Shown here piece by piece: positions 29,877 through 61,875 of a stretch of 64,000 nucleotides of DNA. Under the pieces are notes generated by a model. The model did not search any database. It had not been told where the DNA came from and was given only the letters and a program-made list of their open reading frames with translations. Origin of the DNA: Candidatus Marinacidobacterales bacterium (GTDB lineage: Bacteria; Acidobacteriota; Vicinamibacteria; Marinacidobacterales; SMYC01). The stretch covers positions 2,592,001 through 2,656,000 of the forward strand of contig OZ250169.1 of assembly GCA_965237955.1 (NCBI GenBank). The letters are read 5' to 3'. How positions within the stretch are numbered: position 1 is the stretch's first letter; every line of letters starts with the position of its first letter. The translations under genes and the position numbers were made by a program.

Positions 29877-29911
29877 GTTTGATCGGGGACGGGCACGGGC
29901 AGGGGGAGCTA

Positions 29912-31094
29912 GTCCCATGGAACAGAAAAAGCTAGACAACACCGGCCCTTCTGTGATCTGCTAAATGCATGAAACACAAGGGCCGGCGAAAAGCCGAATT
30001 GAAGCTGTCGTCTCAAGAAAGCGAAGCGCTGACGCGACTGGCGCGACGCAGCCGTAGTTCGCCGCACCAAGCCTTCCGAGCGAAGATCGTGCTGGATTGC
30101 GCGGCGGGTCTGACGAATATGGAAGTTGCTAGGAAGATGCACACCATGAGGAGCACGGTGGGCAAGTGGCGAAGACGCTTTGTAGAACAACGAATGGAAG
30201 GGTTGTACGACGAACCTCGGCCGGGAGCGGCTCGCAAAATCGGCGATGACCAGATCGAGGAAGTCGTGACCAAGACGCTGGCGACGACTCCAAAGGGGAG
30301 AACCCATTGGAGTACGCGCTCGATGGCCAAGCATCTTGGGCTGAGTCATTCGACGATTGGACGTATTTGGCGAACGTTCGGGCTTCAACCGCACCGCTCG
30401 GAATCGTTTCGTCTCTCGCAAGACCCACAACTGGTCGAAAAAGTACGCGACGTTGTTGGCCTGTATATGAACCCACCGGATAACGCGGTCGTCCTGTGCG
30501 TCGACGAGAAATCGCAGATTCAAGCGCTCGAGCGTGCTCAACCTGTCCTGCCCATGAGCTTGGGCCAGCCCGAGCGACAAACCCACGACTATATTCGGCA
30601 TGGAACGACTGACCTGTTTGCCGCACTCGACGCCGCAACAGGTGAAGTCTTCGGAAAGTGCTACGCGCGACATCGAGCGCTAGAGTTCAAGAAGTTCCTC
30701 GCTGAGATCGAAGCAGCCGTTCCCAGCGAGTTGGACATCCACGTCGTGCTCGACAATCTCGCCACGCACAAGACACCGGCGATCAAACGCTGGCTTTCCA
30801 AGCGACCTCGGTTCCACTTTCACTTCACACCGACACACGCCTCTTGGCTCAACTTCGCTGAGCGCTTCTTTGGCTTGCTCACCGAACACGCCTTGCGACG
30901 AGGCTCGCACACGAGCGTGCCTCAGCTCCGCGTTGCGATACAAGACTATCTCGATGCTCACAACGAGAACCCAAAGCCGTTCAAGTGGACGAAATCCGCC
31001 GACCAAATCCTCGAAACCATCGCTCGGTTCGCCCAGCGAACGCTCGATACACATGGCAAATCGAATTTGGACAGTAATTAAAGATCCAGGGGAC
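29912..31094 (+). mobile_element. IS630-family insertion sequence, copy 1 (1183 bp)
   Basis: Ends GTCCCATGGA...TCCAGGGGAC; TA duplicated within a CTAG context on both sides. Confidence 0.95.
29969..31081 (+). CDS. IS630-family transposase
   Basis: HTH domains, [41 protein letters not shown]. Confidence 0.96.
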
Positions 31095-31462
31095 TAGAGG
31101 TACTGGCGGTAGATTGGGTTCGACTGGCAATAGGCCTGGATGGTCCACACGATCACACGGACGTCCTCGACCGCGAGCTTTTTGAAGCGTGCACCGAAGC
31201 CGACCGGAAGCCCGTGGACGGGATGCGTTTGGTGGGTCTGGATCCACGCCACCAAGCTCGGGATCCTGAGCTCGCGCTCGTTTCCCGGCACGCGGAACAT
31301 GACTTCGACCTCTTCGCCGCCGACGGGAAGTTTGTGGGTGGCGACGTAGATCCCGCGAAGCGACAGGTCGAGTAACATCGCCTCGGTATCCCTGCCGGAG
31401 GCGAAGACAGTACAACGGCGGACGAACGGAATACGCAGGGTGGGCGGTGGCTGACTCGTCAC
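31094..31462 (-). CDS. Stand-alone PilZ-domain protein
   Basis: LRIP...DLSLRGIYV...VAW...GFGARF; GTG start inferred; the TAG stop coincides with the IS630 target. Confidence 0.8.
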   Translation of the reverse strand: MTSQPPPTLRIPFVRRCTVFASGRDTEAMLLDLSLRGIYVATHKLPVGGEEVEVMFRVPGNERELRIPSLVAWIQTHQTHPVHGLPVGFGARFKKLAVEDVRVIVWTIQAYCQSNPIYRQYL

Positions 31463-54090: not shown

Positions 54091-54910
54091 GCGGCTTCGA
54101 ATCGCGCGCGAAGGGAGAAACCATGAAGTACCTAGCAATCGTATTGAGTGTTGCCCTGTCCAGCATGTCCGGCCTAGGCTGCTCGGACAATTCGGATTCG
54201 GATTACGTCGACGATATGGCCGAAGAGCACGCCGACGACACTCCGGAATCCAACGAAGCCTCGCAAGCGTCGCCGGCCGTCGACGTCGACACCGAGATGG
54301 TCGACTACGCGACCGTTAACGGTGAGACCGCAACCGGCTATTTGGCGCGACCTGCAGGCGTCGAGGGACCGCTCCCCGGCATCATCGTCATCCACGAATG
54401 GTGGGGCCTGAACGACAACGTCCGCTCGATGGCCGAGCAGCTCGCCGGCGAAGGCTATCAAGCGCTTGCCGTCGATCTCTACGGAGGAGAATCGGCAGAC
54501 ACTCGGGACGGCGCGATGGCTCTCATGTCGGCATCGATGGAGAACTCCGAAGGCCTGAAGGAGAATGTGACCCAAGCGTTCGCGTACCTGGAAGGCGACG
54601 GCCAGAAAGTCGGCACCATCGGATGGTGTTTCGGCGGCGGTTGGTCTCTCGCGACGGCGCTCGCGTTGCCGGAAGACGTCGACGCGACCGCCATCTACTA
54701 CGGCCGTCTCGTGACCGATCAGGATAAGCTGGCGCCACTACAGATGCCGATCCTCGGGTTCTTCGGCTCCGAAGACCAGGGTATTCCCGTAGATTCCGTG
54801 CATGCGTTCGAAACTTCGTTGAACGCACTCGGCAAGGACGCCGCTATTCACATTTATGAAGGAGCGGACCACGCGTTCGCGAACCCTTCGGGAAGGGACT
54901 TATACCGCTA

Positions 54911-56094
54911 GTCCCCTGGATCTTTAATTACTGTCCAAATTCGATTTGCCATGTGTATCGAGCGTTCGCTGGGCGAACCGAGCGATGGTTTCGAGGATTT
55001 GGTCGGCGGATTTCGTCCACTTGAACGGCTTTGGGTTCTCGTTGTGAGCATCGAGATAGTCTTGTATCGCAACGCGGAGCTGAGGCACGCTCGTGTGCGA
55101 GCCTCGTCGCAAGGCGTGTTCGGTGAGCAAGCCAAAGAAGCGCTCAGCGAAGTTGAGCCAAGAGGCGTGTGTCGGTGTGAAAGTGAAAGTGGAACCGAGG
55201 TCGCTTGGAAAGCCAGCGTTTGATCGCCGGTGTCTTGTGCGTGGCGAGATTGTCGAGCACGACGTGGATGTCCAACTCGCTGGGAACGGCTGCTTCGATC
55301 TCAGCGAGGAACTTCTTGAACTCTAGCGCTCGATGTCGCGCGTAGCACTTTCCGAAGACTTCACCTGTTGCGGCGTCGAGTGCGGCAAACAGGTCAGTCG
55401 TTCCATGCCGAATGTAGTCGTGGGTTTGTCGCTCGGGCTGGCCCAAGCTCATGGGCAGGACAGGTTGAGCACGCTCGAGCGCTTGAATCTGCGATTTCTC
55501 GTCGACGCACAGGACGACCGCGTTATCCGGTGGGTTCATATACAGGCCAACAACGTCGCGTACTTTTTCGACCAGTTGTGGGTCTTGCGAGAGACGAAAC
55601 GATTCCGAGCGGTGCGGTTGAAGCCCGAACGTTCGCCAAATACGTCCAATCGTCGAATGACTCAGCCCAAGATGCTTGGCCATCGAGCGCGTACTCCAAT
55701 GGGTTCTCCCCTTTGGAGTCGTCGCCAGCGTCTTGGTCACGACTTCCTCGATCTGGTCATCGCCGATTTTGCGAGCCGCTCTCGGCCGAGGTTCGTCGTA
55801 CAACCCTTCCATTCGTTGTTCTACAAAGCGTCTTCGCCACTTGCCCACCGTGCTCCTCATGGTGTGCATCTTCCTAGCAACTTCCATATTCGTCAGACCC
55901 GCCGCGCAATCCAGCACGATCTTCGCTCGGAAGGCTTGGTGCGGCGAACTACGGCTGCGTCGCGCCAGTCGCGTCAGCGCTTCGCTTTCTTGAGACGACA
56001 GCTTCAATTCGGCTTTTCGCCGGCCCTTGTGTTTCATGCATTTAGCAGATCACAGAAGTGCCAGTGTTGTCTAGCTTTTTCTGTTCCATGGGAC
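54911..56094 (-). mobile_element. IS630-family insertion sequence, copy 2 (1184 bp, inverted)
   Basis: Near-identical to 29912-31094; TA duplicated in a CTAG context. Confidence 0.95.
54924..56037 (-). pseudogene. IS630 transposase with a 1-bp insertion near 55181
   Basis: CACTTTCAC here vs CACTTCAC in copy 1; the ORF splits into 297-aa and 68-aa pieces. Confidence 0.9.
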
Positions 56095-56296
56095 TAGCTT
56101 GACAACCCCATAAGGGCGATAGTGGAACACGGAAGCCGCTAGGAAACAGGGAAATCCGCCGCCGCTACATGGCTGGGCTGCTGGCGCAGCCCACAGCGCC
56201 CGAACTCACCGAGGCCGGGCTCGTCCGGCTGTCTCCCAACGGGAGACACGATGACTTATTACGATCCACACCTCGTACCTAAGCAGTTGTAAATAA

Positions 56297-56449
56297 ATGA
56301 CTTGCTTAGAAAAACGCCCGCTACCACGCACCAAAAAAATCAAACCTAAGCCGCAGGACGGTGACGACGAGCGGAAGCGCAAGCGCAAGCGCCATGCCAA
56401 ATCCAGCCTCGCCGCCCACCGGAAGCGGTGGGCGCGTGTCAAGCCATAG
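56297..56449 (+). CDS. Possible 50-aa highly basic passenger peptide in the MITE
   Basis: MTCLEKRPLPRTKKIKPKPQDGDDERKRKRKRHAKSSLAAHRKRWARVKP; stop inside the right IR; no clear RBS. Confidence 0.3.
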   Translation: MTCLEKRPLPRTKKIKPKPQDGDDERKRKRKRHAKSSLAAHRKRWARVKP

Positions 56450-56551
56450 GTATAAGTCCCTTCGGGAAACGCCTACCAGGCCGAGCCGGCGAAAGACGCA
56501 TGGGAGAAAACGCTCACGTTCTTTGGAGCCCATCTGAAGAGCTCGAGCTAA

Positions 56552-60532: not shown

Positions 60533-61750
60533 TCAGTGGATCCTCTCGAGGGTGAGACCGCCACAGTTTAGGTAGACGAGACTGATGAGAGCTTCGGCAG
60601 AGTGGAGTCCAAAGCTGCGGTGGCTCAGCAGCCTGATTTTGTTGTTCATTCCTTCGAGTCGGCCGTTGCTGAGTCTCCACGTGACCCACGCGATGACGCC
60701 ATCGAAGTGGCTGCTCATCTTCGCCGCGCGTTTGACGGGCTCTATCCTCGAGCTCATAGCGCGCCGCAGCCATCCTCGGAGAAACTTCTTGGCCCATGTC
60801 TCGGTTTTGTAGGTGTAGAGGTCCATGAAGTCGTCGCGCAGAAGCATGGCGCGGTAGAGGCGACGATTAGCTCGCACCTGCTCGCGGAGCACCCGTTTGT
60901 CTTTCGCGCTGCGGTTGTGTTTGGCCTTGAGAAGGGGAAACTTGGTGTTCTTGAGGTTGCGCCGGGCAGTCCCTTTGAGCTCGCGCACCAGCTCGCGCCG
61001 GGTCTTATCCACGGCCTCGTTCAGATGCTTGACGATGTGGAAGCGGTCAAAGATCACCCGTGCCTGAGGAGCCTTTTTGCCGACGACAGTTATGTACGGC
61101 TCCCACATGTCCATGCTGACCGCTTCGAGCTCCGCGGCTCTTTGTGGTCCGAGCTTGCGGAAAAACCGCAGCAGCGTCTTGGCCTTGCGCTCCTTTCCCG
61201 CCCAGACGACCCGGCCGCTGAGATGGTCTATTACCACTGTTAAGTACTTGTGGCGTTTGCGGTAGCTGATCTCGTCCATCCCAATCACCCGCAATCCATC
61301 GAGCTCGCGCCGCTCATCCCGCTGCTCGGCAACCACTCGCTGGATGATCCGTCGCACCGAACGCCACGTCACTCGGAAATAGTTCGCTACGGCGCTGACG
61401 TCCGTCCTCTGTGCCAGCCACGCTACCTCTTGTTCGAAGCTTTTGGTAAAGCGGCTTCCCTTGTCTGCCCAAGGCACCTTTTCTCTGACCACTCCACACC
61501 GCCGACATACCACTCGTCGGATCGAGTAGCGAAGATAGGTCCGGACTCCGAACAGGTCCAAGTGCCGCCAGTAGCGATTGTAGCGATCTTTGTTCTTGCG
61601 GACCTTTCGTCCGCAAATCCCGCACAGAGGCTTCCTCCTCCGTGGTACTACATCCACCACCACTCTGGCTTTGTCCGCCTGGAAGTGGAAACCTCGGACC
61701 CACAGGCCTTGCAATCCGATGAGCTTGTTGACTAACGTAGTAACGCGCAT
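60533..61750 (-). CDS. ISL3-family transposase
   Basis: CGIC...CRRC zinc finger, IGMDEISYRKRHKY, SMDMW, DRFH, SNGRLEGMNNKI. Confidence 0.95.
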   Translation of the reverse strand: MRVTTLVNKLIGLQGLWVRGFHFQADKARVVVDVVPRRRKPLCGICGRKVRKNKDRYNRYWRHLDLFGVRTYLRYSIRRVVCRRCGVVREKVPWADKGSRFTKSFEQEVAWLAQRTDVSAVANYFRVTWRSVRRIIQRVVAEQRDERRELDGLRVIGMDEISYRKRHKYLTVVIDHLSGRVVWAGKERKAKTLLRFFRKLGPQRAAELEAVSMDMWEPYITVVGKKAPQARVIFDRFHIVKHLNEAVDKTRRELVRELKGTARRNLKNTKFPLLKAKHNRSAKDKRVLREQVRANRRLYRAMLLRDDFMDLYTYKTETWAKKFLRGWLRRAMSSRIEPVKRAAKMSSHFDGVIAWVTWRLSNGRLEGMNNKIRLLSHRSFGLHSAEALISLVYLNCGGLTLERIH

Positions 61751-61875
61751 CGCGGGAACGCTCTTTTCTCTTTCGGGAAAAAAGATTCTAGCGTTCTCGC
61801 CGATGCGCATCTACACATGGCTTACCCTCTCAACCCACGGGCCTCACCAAATGCCACTGCCCCTCAGCGGGAGAC

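Follow-up and report, generated by a model that had tools for sequence, protein, structure and literature searches.

Insertion of one IS into another mobile element is common, and a hit inside a terminal repeat is usually read as inactivating the outer element. For the IS630 family, targeting of CTAG is reportedly the subject of a 1991 paper by Tenzen and Ohtsubo, to judge from its title. Members of the IS1595 family, summarized in PMC8101967, are described in the accessible parts of the literature as making 8-bp AT-rich duplications and carrying inverted repeats (IRs) of 14 to 25 bp (PMC8101967, PMC7835479, PMC12561309, PMC5704250). The available sections of these sources report 25-bp IRs and 8-bp repeats for MTnSag1 (PMC5704250), AT-rich 8-bp duplications for ISEc69 (PMC7835479), and 14-bp IRs for ISApl4, an IS1595-family member with 39 copies in one genome (PMC12561309). 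In the same accessible literature, recognition of the IRs by the transposase is only assumed for this family.

The window, the stretch of 64,000 nucleotides from Candidatus Marinacidobacterales bacterium that was analyzed here, contains a dienelactone hydrolase gene interrupted by an IS630-family element nested in a small transposase-free element, and the insertion cuts off the last 27 residues of the hydrolase. The parts of the locus, in window coordinates, are the following.

54123 to 54894, plus strand: 5' part of the dienelactone hydrolase gene (to ...HAFANPSG), from Pfam match and orthologue comparison
54887 to 54894, no strand: left copy of the 8-bp target duplication, TTCGGGAA
54895 to 54907, plus strand: outer 13 bp of the left IR (the stub), the first 12 matching the right IR perfectly
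54908 to 56097, minus strand: IS630-family element, 1190 bp with the CTAG on either side included (1186 inserted)
54924 to 56037, minus strand: IS630 transposase gene, its frame shifted by an extra A near 55180
56094 to 56104, plus strand: inner half of the left IR (CTAG and a block ending TTGACA), 1.19 kb away from the stub
56094 to 56460, plus strand: body of the 380-bp non-autonomous element
56251 to 56449, plus strand: what is left of a small basic ORF that ends within the right IR; of 10 copies translated, one keeps it open (65 aa), and it is broken in the window
56273, plus strand: T in the four copies with a full-length IS630 in the window's orientation (the composites), G in 8/8 other copies
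56285, plus strand: A in the four composites, C in 7/7 other copies keeping the position
56437 to 56460, minus strand: right IR, 24 bp, intact
56461 to 56468, no strand: right copy of the 8-bp target duplication, TTCGGGAA
56462 to 56551, plus strand: orphaned 3' part of the hydrolase gene (SGNAYQ...SSS, stop)

The 5' part of the hydrolase matches positions 3-194 of the 217 in Pfam DLH, and its frame then runs through 5 foreign codons to a stop, TAG, at 54909-54911, giving 262 aa versus 284; the 29 residues 3' of the second duplication match DLH positions 196-216 weakly (E 0.13). A HAFANPSG-x-x-Y..DAW-like run continues without a gap in all five orthologues examined (64-72% identity) and in the register of the window's 3' piece, in agreement with the earlier note, which had the hydrolase stop at ...NPSG and resume in frame 1.57 kb on. 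The rest of the anatomy that the note described from the letters alone also held: TTCGGGAA stands on both sides of the insert (54887-54894 and 56461-56468), the IS630 has entered the left IR at its CTAG (now present at 54908-11 and 56094-97), and it is rightly labeled copy 2, another copy being present in the window at 29909-31097. The whole outer insert covers 54895-56460, or 1566 bp, and subtracting the 1186-bp IS630 leaves 380 bp that encode no transposase. The 24-bp IRs were likewise recovered, since the left and right IRs of an uninterrupted natural copy match at 21 of 24 positions, the first 12 perfectly. A promoter scan gave no sigma-70-like site, and synteny of the neighboring DnaJ gene found no match at the five orthologue loci. 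The effect on the host is small: a single hydrolase is truncated, in a genome densely populated by insertion sequences, among them over 30 near-identical copies of IS21; an ISL3 transposase is also encoded in the window at 60533-61810.

The reconstructed element, sought in the genome by means of an uninterrupted natural copy, is present in 12 copies in the single 8.13-Mb contig; with a length of 379-380 bp, bounding IRs and no transposase, it is a MITE. Eleven copies have the left end and the twelfth lacks it. This end is intact in 3/11 copies (212k, 497k, 2898k) and holds a full-length IS630 in the window's orientation in 4/11 (window, 1858k, 3856k, 6534k), the IS630 at 3856k being itself split by a nested IS21. 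The 4361k copy has a reversed IS630 plus a 133-bp IS630-family mini element, the 2183k copy has the 133-bp mini element with 45 bp deleted, and in two copies (137k, 1518k) the left end is 9 bp shorter. The 8-bp duplication is perfect in all 10 listed copies, representing 9 distinct sites, which excludes a chance origin of the anatomy; at the eleventh copy, 212k, it is off by one T. Since 137k and the intact 497k occupy one site, duplicated within a 4.9-kb segment, the short-ended copy at 137k arose in place. In 9 of the 10 listed copies, the duplication has an A or T at 7-8 of its 8 positions, versus 4 in the window. Variation among the copies falls mostly in a short, AT-rich and roughly palindromic stretch (window 56273-56310). 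An internal ORF piece had no Pfam match in the scan, and comparison of the body with 60 relatives returned only 4 matches of 23-38 nt (E about 5e-4), which is the level expected by chance.

The inner element belongs to a set of 38 full-length IS630 copies in the genome, plus split ones, and all 38 lie at CTAG. Its transposase matches NF033545 with 227.5 bits (cut-off, 100) and measures 297 aa in the window, where a typical copy has 370 aa; this additional A occurs in 2 of the 38 full-length copies and is missing from the collapsed contigs of four runs, which are uninformative on the window copy alone. CTAG flanks the IS630 on each side and is single in uninterrupted copies of the outer element, consistent with a TA duplication within CTAG. 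IS630-family mini elements, which share ends with IS630 and insert at CTAG, occupy about 110 sites in the genome (G000:C1), with 97 copies of exactly 133 bp and 11 copies of 166 bp. Read outward, both IS630-family ends give GGGAC-TAG, which repeats the outer element's own tip (almost GGGACT). An inversion of IS630 between its IRs, a mechanism treated in the available part of PMC3004938, is one candidate origin of the reversed 4361k copy, at whose ends no exchange was seen.

The four composites have an identical layout (13-bp stub, IS630 in one orientation, body) at unrelated sites, with single-copy left flanks in 4/4 and duplications that are all different: TTCGGGAA, AAAAAAAA, TTATTTTA, and TAAGTTTT. 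As IS630 duplicates TA, according to the part of PMC2170065 available, the outer 8-bp duplications were not made by IS630. The four also share the private T and A of the body, a haplotype carried by no uninterrupted copy among the 12, and its coincidence with the composite state would be expected at random in 1 in 210 to 1 in 330 cases. We propose, with a probability of about 0.72, that IS630 entered the element once and that the 1.57-kb pair then spread as a unit, and it is likely that the hydrolase gene was entered in one step by the preassembled pair. The earlier note had placed the events in the order gene, MITE, IS630, an order that the shared private haplotype and the composites at three more loci probably reverse, and it had called the element immobilized, which is probably wrong given the same composite at four loci with four different 8-bp duplications.

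The frequency of IS630 insertion speaks for this proposal. Four independent full-length hits appear very unlikely, since IS630-family elements occupy 48 of 3738 CTAGs (about 1.3%) in other multi-copy contexts and the element's CTAG, with a target score of 1.65 bits (146 training sites, the element's own excluded), is about threefold favored; the probability of at least 4 full-length hits among 11 copies is about 5e-6, a rough and post hoc figure. A first score of 2.13 bits was dropped because it included the element's own sites. The odds improve if the element spread first and the CTAG of its left IR is a strong IS630 hot spot, where four same-orientation hits left the copies stuck and conversion later homogenized them. 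Six of the 11 left-ended copies do carry an IS630-family insert and 2 more are shortened, the IS630 copies of the composites are mosaic and no closer to one another than average, and CTAG is strongly used elsewhere: in a 13-copy repeat end that served as a control (e.g., at 721014, 2397296, and 2926036 in G000:C1), it is filled in 5 copies, by at least three independent events. Even at this occupancy of 38%, however, the same four hits have a probability of 0.024, or about 0.003 when one orientation is required (again rough and post hoc), and they would have to fall in exactly the copies with the private haplotype. Moreover, the control hot spot holds no full-length element in its 5 filled copies, which contain minis of mixed type in both orientations, and an uninterrupted copy with the composite haplotype is absent among the 12. 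We thus regard a hot spot hit four times as unlikely.

Spread of the preassembled pair must also accommodate at least two other events at the same CTAG, namely, the reversed IS630 plus mini at 4361k and the mini at 2183k; the short-ended copies (137k, 1518k) may be deletion scars of further hits. In favor of spread as a unit, a second pair of copies has a 133-bp IS630-family mini in this CTAG, equally oriented in both, although the two copies occupy separate sites. The IS630 sequences speak both for and against it. A two-site IS630 haplotype occurs in 3/4 composites versus 4/35 other copies (Fisher p 0.014), the 6534k IS630 being the one without it. Against a unit, pairwise comparison of the three composite IS630 copies that are not split gives 3, 6, and 5 differing sites, compared with an all-pair mean of 4.8, and the grouping of the four composites differs between body and IS630 variants. 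These variants are mosaic, with 42 of 136 site pairs failing the four-gamete test, so they were set aside as a clock and are not decisive. Given this mosaicism, gene conversion between composites is another way in which the two body variants private to them may have spread.

Conversion might be given a larger part, with IS630 entering one copy and then being copied into resident copies by recombination or gene conversion, without any transposition of the composite. The common orientation and the shared nearby variants would follow, and conversion-like mosaicism is seen in both the IS630 copies and the element bodies. To the left of the insertion, however, only 17 bp are shared, which is too short for efficient homologous recombination, and the transfer would have had to succeed three times; we consider this account highly improbable.

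In the mechanism that we favor, the composite would go back to a single IS630 insertion into the CTAG at IR positions 14-17. An IS1595 transposase supplied in trans would then have moved it, using the right IR, which is intact, and no more of the left IR than its outer 12-13 bp. IS630 would have been carried as cargo into non-CTAG sites, the whole 1.57 kb moving at least three times and once into the hydrolase gene. The transposase may have been a relaxed resident enzyme or a cognate one that has since been lost or is missing from the assembly. So short an end requirement is plausible because the IRs of ISApl4 are only 14-bp. The moves could have proceeded by copy-out/paste-in via a circle, the route that a review suggests for the family; for MTnSag1, the accessible part of one report mentions a circular intermediate and suggests a replicative route (PMC5704250). 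More tentatively, and with considerable doubt, the outer 12-13 bp at one end may in general suffice for IS1595-type transposases, in which case an IS630-hit MITE would copy IS630 to AT-rich non-CTAG sites. Because the IS630-family ends so resemble the MITE's tip, the same hit would add a new left end and allow a 369-bp short form to escape. The 369-bp copy at G000:C1:1518511-1518879, which has a perfect 8-bp duplication to itself, would exemplify such an escaped form.

Which family moved the outer element was approached through its ends. The IS1595 domain PF12762 has 8 matches in the genome, which is 98% complete, and four IS1595 elements are bounded by paired ends that start with GGGAATTA and by 8-bp duplications. 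Only one IS1595 element encodes a full-length transposase (321 aa, G000:C1:4380143-4381105), and its ends match those of the 380-bp element at just 12-13 of 24 positions. The nearest IS1595 end reaches 16-18 of 24, with TTGACA at the equal position, and the remaining IS1595 ends reach 10-14 of 24. A target is shared as well: in 7 of the 432 copies of a repeat ending with TTTGAAAT, an insertion follows directly after this motif, and the seven comprise one IS1595 element, three copies of the 380-bp element, and three others with related ends. This repeat end (e.g., at 206189) often leads into an integrase-core-like ORF. The IS1595-like assignment made in the earlier note thus stands as far as related ends, 8-bp duplications, and one shared target go; the transposase with exact ends that should accompany it was looked for in the genome, its relatives, the phylum, and sequence collections and was not found, in the genome neither among the 8 PF12762 matches nor by tblastn. 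On these sequence features, the outer element is likely a non-autonomous IS1595-type derivative, and by its ends it may belong to the ISNwi1 group, whose end consensus a literature search did not retrieve.

The end pattern was absent from 400 genomes of the phylum and from viral collections, and metagenome collections gave none in one scan and one in another; a single match in a genome collection lay inside a long ORF with no IS1595 near and was taken as chance. On metagenome contig LXNJ01007975.1, positions 2225-2247 of the extracted locus (L028) match the element's left IR at 23/23. This match lies directly upstream of an ORF with a TnpB-like N-terminus (below the cut-off), cut by an IS4-like piece, and a second element end was not found. 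Within the genome, the locus of the full-length IS1595 transposase (G000:C1:4380052-4382616) holds ORFs that by eye resemble a DNA methyltransferase and a BglII-type endonuclease. Three further elements have IS1595-like ends (G000:C1:866904-868410, G000:C1:578315-578760, and one near 405809) and gave no tblastn match to an IS1595 transposase; two of these have perfect 8-bp duplications and small ORFs, one ORF pair in them being HicA/HicB-type-like by eye, and the third yielded no right end. A 1.17-kb unit present at two loci (G000:C1:360148-361320 and 8031201-8032373) is flanked by 12-mer direct repeats one base off the element's tip.

The genome also offers other families with GG ends and 8-bp duplications, ISL3 (22 elements, one end type) and IS256 (8-bp duplications), and with no exact IS1595 partner found, one of these might have moved the outer element, or the nested structure might be an artefact of assembly. 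The ISL3 and IS256 ends compared, one of each, nevertheless match the element's IRs at only 7-9 of 24 positions. As to an artefact, short-read contigs of runs X15, X16, and X18 cross the junction of gene and element with no other letters. Under a rule requiring 31 or more letters on both sides, only the X15 piece passes, the others having 24-29 on the short side; the spanning of the junctions by reads was the check on misassembly named in the earlier note. Contigs from four runs of two studies carry the insertions at the loci checked, those of independent runs agree with the window junctions and join the flanks of the 3856k composite to the stub, and the interrupted frame is confirmed by the orthologues. 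We therefore hold another family or an artefact to be the least probable of the explanations considered. The same contigs were searched for empty sites, and neither an empty nor an element-only allele was seen at the window (X15, X16, X18, X1) or at the 6534k composite (X16, X18, X17, X2), where the left junction is unbridged. This search gives no order of events, because the flanks have hardly any coverage in X1 and X2, rare variants are lost from contigs, X15 and X17 represent one sample, and that junction is unbridged.

If the pair did spread as a unit, an insertion into a terminal repeat does not mean the end of mobility, and the order of nested insertions cannot be read from one locus. 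The left ends form a natural series, from the intact end through ends split by 1.2 kb or by 0.13 kb to the one 9 bp shorter, each with a clean 8-bp duplication, and they offer ready donors with which to map the requirements of the transposase.

Compared with known systems, the outer element resembles the MITE and tIS of the IS1595 family (MTnSag1/tISSag10, tISCpe8), in the accessible descriptions of these, in its GG-starting IRs of about 24 bp and its 8-bp, mostly AT-rich duplications, and it has related ends and one target site in common with the IS1595 elements of the same genome. It differs from those derivatives in that an IS630 interrupts the left IR in 5 copies and a mini alone does so in 1. 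The inner element is like the IS630 family (IS630, ISY100) in NF033545 and CTAG sites, its window copy being frameshifted in the assembly; unlike usual IS630, four copies were probably carried to new sites inside an element of another family, as its cargo, and not moved by their own transposase. Unlike usual nesting, the interrupted form is the commonest here (4/11 left-ended copies versus 3 intact), and the literature searched, which leaves aside ISfinder and most subscription journals, showed no MITE reported to have spread while an IS lay in its terminal repeat. The parts of this locus are thus all of known kinds, and the twist is likely that the nested pair moved together.
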